This document shows positions 9,681-15,875 of a stretch of DNA of 24,000 bases, one piece after another. Below the pieces are notes generated by a model, which was not told the origin of the DNA, searched no databases, and saw only the letters and a program-made list of their open reading frames with translations. The translations under genes were made by a program, and so were the position numbers. Each line of letters begins with the position of its first letter. The first letter of the stretch is position 1. The stretch lies in contig NZ_JBLWEO010000022.1 of the NCBI RefSeq assembly GCF_048287395.1, positions 641 through 24,640 of the forward strand, in the 5' to 3' direction. The DNA is from Candidatus Electronema sp. PJ. Lineage in GTDB: Bacteria > Desulfobacterota > Desulfobulbia > Desulfobulbales > Desulfobulbaceae.

Positions 9681-10322
9681 CTAAAATTGATACAAGTTAA
9701 CGTAAAGAATGATCCCCAGGAAAACTGCGAGTACCAAACAGCTGATCAGCAAACTGCCTCCTCGCAGTACGGTATTCCAGCCAGGATGATTGATTCCTAC
9801 ACTTTGCAAGAGCGACCAAAAGCCGTGGCTGATGTGCAAAACCAGAGCCATAATGCCGACGGCATAGAGTGGGGCCAACAGAGGATTGGTCAATACCCTG
9901 CTTACTCTCTCTGCCACGGGAATGGCCTGATCGGTAAAACGCACTGTGGCCAGATGCAGCAGAAGAAAAGCGAGATTGAGCAGTCCGGTGTAGGGCATCG
10001 TGCGCACAGCCCAAGTTTGCGCAAGGGCGGACTTGCTGCCTGCATATCTGCCAGATTTCGCTTGGCGGTTACGGAGAAATAAACTGATCCCGGTGACGAT
10101 GTGCAGGAGAAAGACCGCCAGTAAGAAAAGTCCGGCAGTTGGTAGAAGAGGCCCAAGTGAACGCAGGTGTTCGGCATAGGCAGTGAATACTTCTCGACCT
10201 TGAAAAATCAAGCTATTGCCTGCGGCGTGAAAGACAAGGAAGCTGCCTAGGAGCAGGCCAGTCAGGGCCATGATGTATTTTCTGCCGAGCGAGGAAGTGC
10301 AGATCTGAACAAAGAGAGACAT
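9681..10322 (-). CDS. Succinate dehydrogenase/fumarate reductase-type dihaem cytochrome b membrane subunit (b558-like), orphan
   Basis: Five predicted TM helices, with His in four of them (LVFHAAGN, FLLHIVTG, LLLHLATV, LVLHISHGFW). The N-terminal SSLGRKYIMALTGLLLGSFLVFH resembles type-B SdhC/FrdC. The start is uncertain; I chose the ATG at 10322 (213 aa), while the track gives 10403. Confidence 0.65.
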   Translation of the reverse strand: MSLFVQICTSSLGRKYIMALTGLLLGSFLVFHAAGNSLIFQGREVFTAYAEHLRSLGPLLPTAGLFLLAVFLLHIVTGISLFLRNRQAKSGRYAGSKSALAQTWAVRTMPYTGLLNLAFLLLHLATVRFTDQAIPVAERVSRVLTNPLLAPLYAVGIMALVLHISHGFWSLLQSVGINHPGWNTVLRGGSLLISCLVLAVFLGIILYVNLYQF

Positions 10323-10440
10323 ACCTTGGCGAATGGCGGTTGAAGATAAAGGCGCAGCGAAAAACAGCCTTCCCATTTTAACCGGGAAACAGATATGCTG
10401 CAATTACCGCCTTTGTTTAGCCAGCCGTAGCTTTTTTATC

Positions 10441-10469
10441 TTGCCAGATTGCTGAAGAGTCTATATACA
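10441..10469 (+). promoter_or_regulatory. Candidate sigma70-type promoter of Cys-repeat gene 1
   Basis: TTGCCA (10441-10446), a 17-nt spacer, then TATACA (10464-10469), preceded by a T-run. The same block CTTGCCAGATTGC..N..TATA recurs upstream of the paralogue. Confidence 0.45.
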
Positions 10470-10531
10470 ATGAATATCCAACATCGTCTGTTTGCCGGAA
10501 AACTTGAGTCGAACAAGAGAGGAAAGCCGAA

Positions 10532-11836
10532 ATGAGACTGAATGCACTGCTGCACGCTGCAATGCTGTTGATTTTATCGGCAGGGGCTGGCCAAGCTGCA
10601 AGCACTATCACCACGCTGGGACGGCATCCTTTTCATCAACCGCCCTTGCAGTCTGCGGATGATCTCAAGGCAATGATGCGAGAGCATCAGGATGAGATCA
10701 AAGAGGGGCTTGATAAGACAGGAAGCAAGAGTGCGCAGCTGTATAATCTCCTGGAAAAGCAGTTTCCCTTGGCCGAAATCAAGGAAATGCAGTACAAGCC
10801 GGGTGCTACCTTCCTCTGGATGTTCTTCAAGCGCAATGGTAAGGGTAATGTGAAGGTGGTCCGTGATCTTACCTGGGGTGGCAAAGAACCATTTGATGGC
10901 TACGAATTTCTCCTCACCGATAAGGAAAAATGCCAGAGCTATACAGTTACCGTGCCCAAGATATGCGGCAACGTAGCCTTACTGAAAACAGAGCAGCTCA
11001 AAGATTGTTCCAGCGGAGTCTGCGCTGATTGCCCGAAAGAATGCCCAGCAGAGTGTAGGTTAGATCCTCATGATTCGGAGAAGTGTCCGGTGGAATGTAA
11101 AAACTGCCGGGTGGAATGTTTGCCAGAGTTCACCTGTTATGATTTCCCTTTGGATTGCCCAGCAGTATGTCTCGATGATTTGGAAAAGTGCCCGGCAGAA
11201 TGTAAAGGTGTGCCTGAAGCGTGCATTACTGCCTGCCCGGACAGCGACTGTCCGCCAGTCACCTGCGCAGACTGCCCGCCTGACTGTGCTCTTCATCCTG
11301 ATTACTGTCCCGACGAGTGCAAGCTGCTTGACTGCCCAGTCTCTCCTGTTGTCAAAGAGCCGGTAAAAGAGCCATCCTTACCAGTACACTTTGTCGCTGA
11401 TCTCGGCTACTTTAAGCAGACGGATCCAGCCGATTACGTCTTTGGCCGAATTGGTGTGGAGTACAGTCCCTTTGCCTCAGACAGTGACTTTGAGAATATC
11501 TCCTTCCTCGGCATGATCGGTGTTGCGCCGCAAGTCAAAGGCGATGACGGCGACGACGTTCTGCTGTTGGATATGTTTGCCAACTACAACTGGACAGCAG
11601 GGGATATGAAGGGTTGGATCGGTTTAGGAGTAGGCGGTTGGATTACCTCTGGCGATGTGGATGATGACTCAGGAGATACAGATATCGATATCATGGCCAA
11701 TGTCGGTGCCCGGGTATATGGCGACCCTTCAGCCTTTAATGTCTCTGCCTTCTTGGAGATACGGAGTGCGGTTGACGAGTTCGATGGTCTTGCTGAGTAC
11801 GGACGTTTTGGCGTAGGGCTGCGTTGCCGGTTTTAA
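10532..11836 (+). CDS. Secreted cysteine-repeat protein 1 with C-terminal OMP-like beta-barrel domain
   Basis: SD GAGAGGAAAG lies before the ATG. Sec-type signal peptide is MRLNALLHAAMLLILSAGAGQA. A unique domain of about 130 aa comes first. It is followed by 23 Cys between aa 159 and 268, mostly as C-P-x-x-C (nt 11006-11335). The last ~150 aa have alternating hydrophobic residues and end in GLRCRF, i.e. a terminal Phe typical of outer-membrane barrels. Confidence 0.85.
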   Translation: MRLNALLHAAMLLILSAGAGQAASTITTLGRHPFHQPPLQSADDLKAMMREHQDEIKEGLDKTGSKSAQLYNLLEKQFPLAEIKEMQYKPGATFLWMFFKRNGKGNVKVVRDLTWGGKEPFDGYEFLLTDKEKCQSYTVTVPKICGNVALLKTEQLKDCSSGVCADCPKECPAECRLDPHDSEKCPVECKNCRVECLPEFTCYDFPLDCPAVCLDDLEKCPAECKGVPEACITACPDSDCPPVTCADCPPDCALHPDYCPDECKLLDCPVSPVVKEPVKEPSLPVHFVADLGYFKQTDPADYVFGRIGVEYSPFASDSDFENISFLGMIGVAPQVKGDDGDDVLLLDMFANYNWTAGDMKGWIGLGVGGWITSGDVDDDSGDTDIDIMANVGARVYGDPSAFNVSAFLEIRSAVDEFDGLAEYGRFGVGLRCRF

Positions 11837-11927
11837 GCAAAGGGCGGCCTGCGCTTTCTGGTAACATCCTGCTGTTTTTTCTTGCCGCTGTTCGGTATGG
11901 CGAAGCAAAATAGCCTGCTTTTTTGCC

Positions 11928-11956
11928 TTGCCAGATTGCGGCAGAAATTATATAAC
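11928..11956 (+). promoter_or_regulatory. Candidate sigma70-type promoter of Cys-repeat gene 2
   Basis: TTGCCA (11928-11933), a 17-nt spacer, then TATAAC (11951-11956). The surrounding sequence is conserved with 10425-10470. Confidence 0.45.
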
Positions 11957-12059
11957 AAACCAATAATAGCTGACCGCTCATTTCGCTTGATTTTTTTCGG
12001 AGATGCCCGGAAATCAGGCGGCAGGGATGGAAAAATTAACAGAAACGGAGAGTTGGAAG

Positions 12060-13115
12060 ATGAAGACAAAGATGTTGCTACAGACTGCGGCACTGTTGCT
12101 GCTGTCCGCAGGTGTTGTTCATGCTGGAGGAAAGTTCGGCAAAAAGCATTGGACCTGCGATGATTGCTCGCCAGAGTGCCTGCAAAATCCCTATGCGAAA
12201 GGCTGCCCTGATATCTGTAAATCTCCTGAATGTCAGACCTCCTGCGAAAAATGCCCGGCAACCTGCAAGCAGCATCCTGGCGCACCAGGCTGCCCGGAGA
12301 TCTGCAAAGACGTGCAATGCCAATCCTGTAGTGACTGCACTCCTGAATGCAAAAAGACTCCTGCTGATCCAACATGCCCGGATATCTGTAAGGACATTAA
12401 GTGCTTCTCCTGTGACGATTGCTCAGTGGACTGCATCATTAACCCGCAGGGCAAAGACTGCCCAGCAGTGTGCGCAGATCTCAATTGCAATGTCTGCGAT
12501 AAGTTCCCCAAAGACTGCCCAGCAACCTGCAAGGACAACCCGAACGATCCTGACAAATGCCGTCCTGAGTGCAAGGATGTTCCTGAAAAATGCCTGATGG
12601 CACCAGTTGATCCTACGCAACAAGACCCTACCCAACAAGAGCCTCCTTCTGAAGCAGGCCCCCTGCGCTTTGTTGGCGATCTTGGCTACTTTAAGCAGAC
12701 TGATCCCGCTGATTACGTCTTTGGCCGGATTGGTGTGGAGTACAGCCCCTTTGCCCCTGGCAGCCGCTTTGAAAACGTTTCCTTCCTGGGTATGATCGGT
12801 GTTGCCCCGCAAGTCAAAGGCGATGACGGCGATGACGCTCTGCTGTTGGATGTATTTGCCAACTACAACTGGACAGCAGGCGATGTCAATGGCTGGGTCG
12901 GTTTAGGTGTAGGCGGCTGGATTACCTCTGGCGATGTGGATGACGATTCAGGGGATACTGACATTGATGTTATGGTCAATGCAGGTGCTCGGATCTATGG
13001 CGATCCATCAGCCTTCAACGTTTCTGCTTTCTTGGAGATCCGCAGCGCAGTTGATGAGTTCGATGGTCTTGCTGAGTACGGACGCTTCGGTGGTGGTCTG
13101 CGCTTCAAGTTCTAA
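12060..13115 (+). CDS. Secreted cysteine-repeat protein 2 (five 28-aa six-Cys modules) with C-terminal OMP-like beta-barrel domain
   Basis: The ATG at 12060 has GGAG 9 nt upstream, and the track start at 12003 is less likely. Signal peptide is MKTKMLLQTAALLLLSAGVVHA. There are 30 Cys in about 146 aa (nt 12156-12593). A PTQQDPTQQEPP linker follows. The C-terminal 150 aa are about 88% identical to protein 1 and end in GLRFKF. Confidence 0.85.
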   Translation: MKTKMLLQTAALLLLSAGVVHAGGKFGKKHWTCDDCSPECLQNPYAKGCPDICKSPECQTSCEKCPATCKQHPGAPGCPEICKDVQCQSCSDCTPECKKTPADPTCPDICKDIKCFSCDDCSVDCIINPQGKDCPAVCADLNCNVCDKFPKDCPATCKDNPNDPDKCRPECKDVPEKCLMAPVDPTQQDPTQQEPPSEAGPLRFVGDLGYFKQTDPADYVFGRIGVEYSPFAPGSRFENVSFLGMIGVAPQVKGDDGDDALLLDVFANYNWTAGDVNGWVGLGVGGWITSGDVDDDSGDTDIDVMVNAGARIYGDPSAFNVSAFLEIRSAVDEFDGLAEYGRFGGGLRFKF

Positions 13116-13164
13116 ATAGCAGCGGACAGACGACGATCTGCCTGCGGGCAGACCTGATCAGATC

Positions 13165-13196
13165 AAGGCACGGGGTGAGAATCCTGTGCCTTTTTG
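13165..13196 (+). terminator. Rho-independent terminator of Cys-repeat gene 2
   Basis: AAGGCAC (13165-13171) pairs with GTGCCTT (13186-13192) around a 14-nt loop, followed by a T-run to 13195. Confidence 0.65.
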
Positions 13197-13220
13197 CTTG
13201 CCCAACGATTCTATGGGATC

Positions 13221-13258
13221 AAAAAAGCAAAGGGCAGGCATTATGCCTACCCTTTTGC
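13221..13258 (-). terminator. Rho-independent terminator of the cytochrome c gene
   Basis: On the minus strand, GCAAAAGGGTAGGCAT-A-ATGCCTGCCCTTTGC forms a stem with one mismatch/bulge and is followed by TTTTTTGATCCC. Confidence 0.6.
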
Positions 13259-13289
13259 TGTCTGTGCGGGACTAACGGTAAGAAGCTAC

Positions 13290-13613
13290 TTACTTCTTTT
13301 CCTCAGCCGCCAAAGACAGAATCCAGGTGGCAATCGCCTTGGCATCAGCCTCGCTCACATTGGCCATCGGAGCCATCATCTTGCCGGGACCTGTTGCATC
13401 CTTGCTGCCCTTTTGGATCACGGTCACAATTTTTTGCTCGCCCTCTTTGTCAGCTGCAAACTTCTTGCTGATATCCTTCATGCTGGGTCCCATGCCTGCT
13501 TTGTCCAGCTGATGGCAGACCATGCAGTTCTTCTTTGCCAATTCCTCGCTGGCAAATGCAGAGCCAGAAACCAACAGACAGGCAACGGCACAACCAAGTA
13601 ATGCGTACTTCAT
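13290..13613 (-). CDS. Periplasmic class I cytochrome c, c551/c8-like
   Basis: Signal peptide MKYALLGCAVACLLVSGSAFA. There is a single CMVCH haem site and a distal Met region KMMAPMANVSEADAKAIATWILSL, which parallels Pseudomonas c551 (PMPPNAVSDDEAQTLAKWVLS). AAGGAG lies 7 nt before the ATG. Confidence 0.88.
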   Translation of the reverse strand: MKYALLGCAVACLLVSGSAFASEELAKKNCMVCHQLDKAGMGPSMKDISKKFAADKEGEQKIVTVIQKGSKDATGPGKMMAPMANVSEADAKAIATWILSLAAEEKK

Positions 13614-15476: not shown

Positions 15477-15875
15477 AGTTGGTCTGCATTCAGAAGCACT
15501 TTTGCATCTTCCGAAGTAGCATTCACTCGTTTGAAAGCTGGCAACAGACGTGTGGATACTCTATTCAGACATATAAACAGAGCATTTACTCGTTTGTTTG
15601 GAGCATTCAGATGTATGAAATGAGCTTTTGCATGTTCAAAAGCAGCATTCACTCGTTTGAAAGATGGCAACGGACGTGTGAACAGAGCTTTTGGATGTCC
15701 AGAAACAGTGCTCACTCGTTTGTTAAGAGGATTTGGATATCTAAAAGCTCTATTTAGACATATAAATGGAGTGTTCATACGTTTGAATGCAGCATTTACT
15801 CGTCTGTTTGCTCATAACAAACGAGTGAATACTCCAAGCACTCGTTGAAAAACTGTTTGCACACGAGCAAAAACC
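15477..15875. repeat. Family B 21-nt tandem repeat array with 63-nt higher-order period (about 19 units)
   Basis: The unit is about GCATTCACTCGTTTGAAAGNN. Best-conserved copies start at 15519, 15582, 15645, 15708 and 15771 (63-nt steps), then 15792. Weaker units fill every 21-nt slot. An inverted unit (CAAACGAGTGAAT, 15818-15830) lies near the right end. All six frames are largely free of stop codons, as expected for a repeat. Confidence 0.85.

Follow-up and report, generated by a model that had tools for sequence, protein, structure and literature searches.

A 24-kb window (the whole stretch of DNA analysed here) from Candidatus Electronema sp. PJ, a freshwater cable bacterium, contains two neighbouring genes, labelled CysA and CysB (Table 1), whose products belong to a cysteine-rich subfamily found only in cable bacteria. 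What is new in these proteins is a Cys module without detectable relatives, carried on what is predicted to be a known membrane-anchor fold. We tentatively propose that CysA and CysB act as thiol-rich periplasmic anchors or assembly factors for the Ni/S conductive structure. In these organisms periplasmic fibres carry electric current over centimetres, and the protein that builds, caps or anchors the conductor has not been identified. Four traits make the Cys-rich subfamily a concrete candidate: it is confined to cable bacteria and occurs in all cable-bacterial genomes examined, it is strongly conserved, its members would lie under the outer membrane, and one in five residues of the array is Cys. 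Current fibre models lack precisely such a thiol-rich protein in the periplasm. CysB is short and could be expressed alone, which makes the question of a Ni/S-wire protein testable.

The two Cys genes and the cytochrome genes on either side had been called in an earlier sequence-only reading of this DNA, and all four open reading frames (ORFs) were found at the positions and on the strands given in Table 1. For CysB, the ATG at 12060 and not that at 12003 was taken as the start, since a Shine-Dalgarno sequence is present and the database protein likewise has 351 aa. Signal peptides and C-terminal beta-signals were read by eye. The N-termini, MKTKMLLQTAALLLLSAGVVHA/GG and MRLNALLHAAMLLILSAGAGQA/AS, are of the Sec type, and the C-termini, ...GLRFKF and ...GLRCRF, close a C-terminal strand of alternating hydrophobic residues that ends in Phe; in some orthologues the last residue is His, Gln, Arg or Leu and not an aromatic one. 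CysA has 26 Cys in total (23 in its Cys-rich region), seven C-P-x-x-C motifs and a C-terminal RF, while all 30 Cys of CysB lie in its module region, with six C-P-x-x-C motifs and a C-terminal KF. Each Cys region consists of 20% Cys and is acidic and Pro-rich. The proteins are paralogues (BLASTP E 6e-73) with about 87% identity across the last 150 aa. AlphaFold2 (AF2) models were built on alignments of 26 and 24 relatives. In the CysA model, residues 30–155 of the N-domain were modelled confidently, with three helices and six strands; no relative of this domain was detected in Pfam or the PDB. The paralogy, Sec-type signal peptides, 23–30 Cys, C-P-x-x-C arrays and terminal Phe proposed in the earlier reading are all borne out by the sequence, and the signal peptides together with the modelled barrel agree with its placement of both proteins in the cell envelope.

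The CysB array is built from Asp/Glu-rich modules of 28 residues with the pattern C-x2-C-x3-C-x8-C-x3-C-x4-C, so spaced that (2,3,8,3,4,2-3) recurs in five repeats. The consensus of 110 modules from 26 orthologues reads CDDCSxECxxNPYxxGCPxICxDxxC. Nearly every Cys of the array is flanked by Asp and Glu, and His is almost absent. Because the spacing is mirror-symmetric around the NPY..G turn, the module is predicted to form an antiparallel hairpin with three Cys-Cys rungs. In the AF2 model the Cys region appears as a string of helices of 4–5 residues, one per C-x3-C, which agrees with such a fold and suggests it. All 30 Cys of CysB are invariant or at least 90% conserved among 26 orthologues from Electronema and Electrothrix that share only 48–86% overall identity with the CysB of the window, and many residues flanking the Cys are likewise kept across both genera. 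Chance can thus be excluded for the array, as the 30 Cys persist despite this divergence. Of 25 orthologues aligned with the window CysB, seven have 30 Cys and 13 have 36; the remaining five have 34, 37, 44 or 49. These counts are consistent with the gain or loss of entire six-Cys modules. In CysA the last module corresponds to module six of those CysB orthologues that have 36 Cys, and the barrel resembles that of CysB, so that CysA looks like a CysB duplicate that acquired an N-domain.

The Cys domain had no match in Pfam, NCBIfam or PDB sequences, metallothionein and Csp models included, and the earlier remark that no described family has this architecture holds for the databases searched. 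With metallothioneins and Csp proteins the CysB array shares a Cys content of 20%, C-x-x-C and C-x3-C motifs and a scarcity of aromatic and His residues. It differs in being acidic instead of Lys- or Ser-rich, in being membrane-anchored and in its predicted elongated repeat; the known proteins have a cluster-wrapping domain or a four-helix bundle. Small Tim twin CX3C and CHCH proteins carry C-x3-C motifs on facing short helices, which can bind metal when reduced or form paired disulfides when oxidised. These share with CysB two C-x3-C motifs on short helices across a loop, whereas in CysB the loop has 8 residues, a third Cys pair is present and five or six modules stand in tandem; no homology was detected between the CysB array and either group. 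A functional analogy only is offered by chlamydial OmcA/OmcB, Cys-rich proteins held to the outer membrane on its periplasmic side that can form a detergent-resistant, disulfide-cross-linked layer. They share with CysB their Cys richness and this predicted location, and differ in a lipid or association anchor, a lower Cys density and the lack of a regular six-Cys module, with no relationship to CysB in sequence or domains. An Fe-S polyferredoxin was ruled out: there was no Fer4 match, the fourth Cys is not followed by Pro and the signal, which has no twin arginine, is Sec, not Tat. The string C-x2-C-x2-C-x3-C does occur in CysB, at Cys87-97 and Cys115-125, with no Pro after it.

The last 150 or so residues of both proteins were modelled as eight antiparallel strands with a predicted local distance difference test score (pLDDT) above 90. 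A Foldseek search returned OmpX, NspA, OprF-N, OmpA and PagL as the best PDB matches (probability 1.0, target template modelling (TM) score 0.5–0.68), so the small C-terminal barrel postulated earlier models as an OmpX/OmpA-like eight-stranded outer-membrane barrel. No Pfam or NCBIfam model matched it, even at E up to 10. Like OmpX, NspA, OmpA-N and PagL, CysA and CysB have a Sec-type signal peptide, eight modelled strands and a terminal Phe; unlike them, they have a large periplasmic domain ahead of a C-terminal barrel, and match no curated barrel model. Barrels of the OmpX/OmpA type have both N- and C-terminus on the periplasmic side. The Cys array would therefore hang directly below the outer membrane, in the periplasm, where the conductive fibres run. 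The order of an N-terminal passenger followed by a C-terminal barrel is also that of type Va autotransporters, and weak Foldseek matches to the NalP, Hbp and EspP barrels (TM about 0.2–0.3) were obtained; the barrel could in that case export the Cys array to the surface, where it would contact minerals or neighbouring cells. However, known autotransporter translocator barrels have 12 strands, about 250–300 aa and a linker in the lumen, while the barrel described here has about 150 aa and eight strands, leaves no lumen for a linker and is fitted far better by OmpX/OmpA. With this strand number, length and low TM-score the proteins do not belong to the type Va autotransporters, and a surface-exposed passenger is unlikely, the least probable of the roles considered here.

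Relatives of CysB were sought among 5.8 billion proteins. The search gave 76, and every named one came from Electronema, Electrothrix or a single-filament genome deposited as 'Desulfobulbus sp.'; the latter genomes cluster with Electronema/Electrothrix at 90% identity or more. When 1.84 billion representative proteins were searched with only the Cys domain, two representative clusters were retrieved, both of the CysB type. A scan with a barrel profile over one genome per species (185,579 species) yielded 48 loci. Desulfofustis glycolicus, Desulforhopalus singaporensis, Desulfotalea and Desulfopila have proteins with an N-domain, a linker and the barrel and with 1–6 Cys, and the linkers of such non-cable members of the Desulfobulbales are Pro-rich or PKD-like. 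In the same scan, versions with 30–49 Cys came from cable-bacterial genomes only, and the Cys-rich type was present in each cable-bacterial genome examined. Absences in this pattern-based scan need caution, because it missed a real orthologue of E. aureum GS (CDV28_11333 / A0A521G1W0, TAA75005.1). A link to cable bacteria had been raised speculatively in the sequence-only reading, and both the identity of the organism and the distribution of the subfamily now speak for it. CysA matches a protein of Ca. Electronema sp. PJ with 100% identity, and CysB shares a 90%-identity cluster with a 351-aa protein from this organism. We found no paper on the family, its accessions, its locus tags or any Cys-rich cable-bacterial protein.

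Four types of architecture were distinguished. The CysB type consists of signal peptide, cysteine modules and barrel, and the CysA type of signal peptide, N-domain, cysteine region and barrel. A third has an N-domain, 3–19 VPGPERIVE repeats, a CCPxC motif and the barrel, and is labelled 'IMCp domain' by some sources, and a short type has N-domain and barrel only. The arrangement seen across the Desulfobulbales suggests a family of periplasmic tethers. CysA and CysB would descend from this order-wide N-domain/linker/barrel family, the ancestral linker having probably been swapped for cysteine modules in the cable-bacterial lineage. Paralogues with VPGPERIVE repeats were noted in Electrothrix and E. 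halotolerans (loci L034, L037, L040, L043, L045, L046 and L052; also P0041, P0051, P0057 and P0071), with a copy number that varies widely by species, as would befit a protein serving as ruler or fibril in the periplasm. Non-cable members from Desulfofustis, Desulforhopalus and Desulfotalea (L021, L022, L028, L029, L036) have a four-Cys PKD/immunoglobulin-like segment between the Pro-rich linker and the barrel. The barrel scan placed the family in Desulfocapsaceae-type genera and found none in Desulfobulbus, Desulfolithobacter or Desulfurivibrio, a distribution reminiscent of the nik operon of Desulfocapsaceae type that has been reported for cable bacteria.

Upstream of both genes lies a shared element composed of a T-run and TTGCCAGA-N12-TTATATA, which is found in both genera despite different neighbours. 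In an alignment of 11 CysB upstream regions from the two genera, the TTGCC and TTATAT blocks were invariant. When the motif was run as a regular expression over 663 kb on both strands, it gave 24 matches, each of them (24/24) directly upstream of CysA or CysB and none upstream of low-Cys paralogues; it is carried by the window and 22 related loci (including L001-L015, L017, L020, L030, L058 and L059). With a private promoter at each gene, each Cys gene would therefore be its own transcription unit that moves together with its control region. The near-consensus elements suggest strong expression, and the element may be the site of a dedicated regulator. From the position of the promoter element, a leader of about 95 nt is predicted for CysB, followed by a AAGGAGAG-type ribosome-binding site. 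This leader (window 11960-12059) contains a short hairpin, TTTCGG...CCGGAAA, which recurs with other sequences in V4, JC and GS and hints at a conserved stem. No Rfam family came near its gathering score in the CysA and CysB leaders or in the interval between CysB and nik in Electrothrix. A sigma-54 promoter was rejected, TGG-N9-TGC being absent upstream of every CysB. Short contigs with CysB only (L061-L065) were considered as possible transcripts; this was also rejected, as they reflect ORF-complete selection and two of them extend upstream of the predicted start.

Comparison of 20-odd CysB loci from Electronema and Electrothrix revealed a nickel context in the latter genus. In all nine Electrothrix loci with a readable downstream region, the next gene after CysB encodes a small ferredoxin and lies on the opposite strand; nikM-nikL-nikK-nikQ come after it, with nik genes within about 1 kb of CysB. 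The adjacency holds in YB6 despite a different upstream flank; E. gigas keeps only nikL-nikK beside CysB, nikM and nikQ having moved away. As the ferredoxin gene intervenes on the opposite strand, the arrangement is not operonic. A sequence GTGTTAC-N13-ATATTAC is conserved in Electrothrix about 30–40 nt before nikM (L002 at about 10066, L004 at about 10342, L013-L016 and L047), and we take it to be a candidate NikR operator. Upstream of CysB, in divergent orientation, Electrothrix has a conserved gene for a membrane protein of 204 aa with about four hydrophobic segments (L002 7076-7690, L004, L013-L016), which matched no family and does not resemble the cytochrome b of the window. The gene divergent from CysB on its upstream side in E. 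aureum GS is of the MoCF_biosynth family (L058 6326-7351), which belongs to the molybdopterin pathway. Molybdopterin is the known biological dithiolene; a molybdopterin link was nonetheless rejected, since the gene adjoins CysB in no other locus and its position is probably coincidental. The nik-neighbourhood drawing in Hiralal 2024 (PMC11247825) includes a 'hyp.' gene, possibly CysB, that passes without comment in the accessible part of that source.

These observations can be set against what is reported of the conductor. The fibre conductor is described as stacked oligomers of Ni(ett), a nickel bis(dithiolene), with terminal sulfurs that may be tied to cysteine by S-S links; models of fibre composition assume a S-rich protein, none of which has been identified, and a separate Cu/S entity is placed at the cartwheel junctions (PMC13534509; bioRxiv 10.1101/2025.10.10.681601). 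A screen based on known nickel-binding domains gave no periplasmic candidate (Digel 2025; PMC11976967). If CysA and CysB serve as anchor or assembly factor, the Sec-type signal peptide would take them to the periplasm and the barrel would hold the Cys array below the outer-membrane ridge. There the rungs might act as thiolate ligands of soft metal ions, or might be joined by S-S bonds to the sulfurs at the ends of the nickel bis(dithiolene) ribbons. The proteins could in this way nucleate, cap or tether the Ni/S conductor and possibly the Cu/S conductor at cell junctions, each gene being driven from what appears to be its own conserved promoter. The case for this role is circumstantial and consists of the restriction to cable bacteria, strong selection, the location given by the barrel, the density of thiols, the nik context and the open protein gap. 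The nickel link of the earlier reading is still to be taken as a proposal, to which the nik adjacency in Electrothrix adds one new circumstantial point.

Several points weigh against an anchor or assembly factor. Periplasmic cysteines are usually oxidised, and a symmetric six-Cys module can be satisfied by three internal disulfides, as in structural mini-domains. Most nickel-binding proteins use His, of which the array is nearly devoid. Fibres survive extraction with sodium dodecyl sulfate and ethylenediaminetetraacetic acid, by which the membranes are removed, and an outer-membrane anchor is therefore not needed for fibre integrity. Nor can CysB be the bulk Ni ligand, because a cell holds about 18 million Ni atoms (PMC13534509), far beyond the capacity of an outer-membrane protein with 30 Cys. 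The nik adjacency is non-operonic and confined to Electrothrix, and the CysB of E. aureum GS adjoins neither nik nor cytochrome b. Shared nickel regulation was rejected, since neither the region upstream of CysB nor the intergenic regions of the window contain the NikR-like box. A more far-reaching proposal is that CysB, with CysA where present, constitutes the missing protein partner of the nickel-organic framework, and that the orphan cytochrome b described below acts as quinol-linked electron entry or exit in seven of the eight Electronema genomes examined; the hairpin arrays would then nucleate the Ni(ett) nanoribbons, cap them through Cys-S-S-dithiolene links or Ni-thiolate bonds, and tether them beneath the outer-membrane ridges. 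This we consider rather doubtful.

An inert structural protein is nearly as likely as an anchor or assembly factor, and sequence by itself does not allow a choice between them. The modules, each a hairpin stapled by three disulfides, would form a stiff acidic stalk or a lattice open to cross-linking, without a role in metal binding or electron transfer, which might shape or stiffen the ridged envelope or set the periplasmic spacing, like the chlamydial Cys-rich complex. The ancestral N-domain/linker/barrel protein looks like a spacer or tether, and the Cys region occupies the position of a linker that was Pro-rich, PKD-like or made of VPGPERIVE repeats. The spacing is symmetric (2,3 | 8 | 3,4), with an even count of six Cys per module, AF2 gives a confident compact helical repeat, and Sec export leads to an oxidising compartment. 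Yet a stalk would leave unexplained why the Cys version is confined to cable bacteria and universal in those examined, and why Asp and Glu flank nearly every Cys; much of the filament, moreover, lies in sulfidic sediment, where exposed disulfides would not be expected to last. Even a purely structural role would make the proteins an envelope component peculiar to this lineage and a marker for the origin of its cell plan. A metal buffer or chaperone resembling metallothionein or Csp ranks third after the anchor and stalk readings, and we think it unlikely. Beneath the outer membrane it would hold a reversible store of a soft metal such as Ni(II) or Cu(I), supplying fibre or junction assembly or guarding against metal toxicity in sulfidic, metal-rich pore water. 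The high Cys content, the many C-x3-C motifs on predicted short helices and the acidic surface would suit such a store, as would the nickel energy-coupling factor (ECF) importer adjoining CysB in Electrothrix. Cable bacteria also have an unusually high Ni demand and expanded Ni transport genes (PMC11247825; PMC13534509). However, no metallothionein or Csp model resembles the Cys domain, no NikR-like site is shared, barrel-anchoring of a buffer would be unusual and the nik genes adjoin CysB in one genus only.

The sequence-only reading had further joined cytochrome b, CysA, CysB and cytochrome c into one redox or metal-handling module from the inner membrane through the periplasm to the outer membrane. 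As a redox chain, this module would have quinol electrons run from the dihaem cytochrome b to Cys in thiol/disulfide or sulfur-carrying form and to cytochrome c. The earlier assignment of the single genes stands. The cytochrome b is a membrane protein of 213 aa that scores 136 bits against TIGR02046 (sdhC_b558_fam; cut-off 96) and aligns with the SdhC chain 9lay_C (E 3e-21), its His32, His74, His123 and His163 falling on His, as fits a dihaem SdhC/FrdC-type protein with four haem-ligand His. It is 50–65% identical to SdhC across the Desulfobulbaceae and, judged by this similarity, is an ordinary SdhC orthologue of that family. Likewise, the cytochrome c resembles c551, with a signal peptide, a C30-x-x-C33-H34 motif, a PF00034 score of 49 bits (cut-off 21, E 1.4e-12) and c552/c551 as its closest solved relatives (E 1e-14 to 1e-11; PDB 1a56, E 1.9e-14); a promoter-like site at 13772-13744(-) and a terminator-like hairpin agree with the promoter and terminator ascribed to it.

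The conserved four-gene unit, by contrast, failed the comparison of loci. Cytochrome b is the divergent upstream neighbour in seven Electronema (PJ, V4, JC, KV, E. halotolerans, TJ and S01.Bin068), whose outer flanks differ, and CysA sits between it and CysB in only three of these seven genomes. In E. aureum GS CysB stands among unrelated genes, with cytochrome b elsewhere; no cytochrome b homologue was found in the flanks of any Electrothrix CysB locus examined, and in YB6 the two genes are unlinked. No cytochrome c homologue turned up in the regions flanking CysB at any other locus (more than 20 examined). With cytochrome c adjoining the Cys genes in this window alone and cytochrome b adjoining CysB only in Electronema, the four genes are not a conserved unit, and the cytochromes are neighbours that are not demonstrably part of the Cys device. 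What favours a redox chain is the retention of the divergent cytochrome b/CysB pair amid changing flanks, and the separation of cytochrome b from sdhAB. Neither sdhA nor sdhB was found in the 24-kb window, the part of the PJ genome searched, or beside cytochrome b in E. aureum (L055) and Electrothrix YB6 (L056). In a non-cable Desulfobulbaceae metagenome-assembled genome (L057) the homologue keeps its place in an sdhC-sdhA-sdhB operon, whereas in these three cable-bacterial loci the quinone-linked dihaem cytochrome b stands alone and, as an orphan, may have taken on a different function. Every gene of the proposed chain, however, has its own promoter or terminator, and the SdhC-type anchors of known enzymes dock their partners on the cytoplasmic side. 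Such a chain is thus very improbable. Directly upstream of the orphan cytochrome b in Electrothrix YB6 (L056 1-5992) we noted an ORF of more than 2,081 aa without a Pfam domain.

Table 1. Features of the Cys genes and adjoining cytochrome genes, with nucleotide positions in the 24-kb window and residue numbers in the respective protein.
Feature	Position	Strand	Basis and remarks
Cytochrome b, SdhC/FrdC b558 type	9681..10322	-	TIGR02046; PDB 9lay_C
CysA promoter element TTGCCAGATTGCTGAAGAGTCTATATA, T-run ahead	10441..10467	+	Regular-expression motif
CysA	10532..11836	+	434 aa; ORF; AF2; Foldseek matches to OmpX/NspA/OmpA
CysA signal peptide	residues 1-22	+	Sequence
CysA N-domain	residues 23-156, nt 10598-10999	+	AF2 pLDDT about 90
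CysA cysteine-rich region	residues 159-268, nt 11006-11335	+	23 Cys; low AF2 score
CysA eight-stranded barrel (predicted)	residues 284-434, nt 11381-11833	+	AF2 pLDDT about 90 or above; Foldseek
CysB promoter element TTGCCAGATTGCGGCAGAAATTATATA	11928..11954	+	Upstream alignment and regular-expression motif
CysB	12060..13115	+	351 aa; ORF; AF2 mean pLDDT 79.7; Foldseek
CysB signal peptide	residues 1-22	+	Sequence
CysB five 6-Cys modules	residues 33-178, nt 12156-12593	+	30 Cys; AF2 pLDDT 80-88
CysB linker	between Cys modules and barrel	+	Sequence
CysB eight-stranded barrel (predicted)	residues 199-351, nt 12654-13112	+	AF2 pLDDT >90
Terminator-like hairpin after CysB	13165..13192	+	12-bp stem, then T-run
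Terminator-like hairpin after cytochrome c gene	13229..13255	-	12-bp stem, then T-run
Cytochrome c, class I monohaem, periplasmic, c551/c552-like	13290..13613	-	PF00034; PDB 1a56

The flanking genes in the window have housekeeping functions: trpC, dnaK, grpE, and genes for a DEAD-box helicase, S-adenosylhomocysteine (AdoHcy) hydrolase, folE2 and a PBP4-type peptidase. Degenerate repeats with a period of 21, 42 or 63 nt occupy about 350 bp at 15484-15830, with 61–89% identity between copies. They fill a low-GC gap between the AdoHcy hydrolase gene and a tetratricopeptide repeat (TPR) gene, and the ORFs called there on both strands look spurious.

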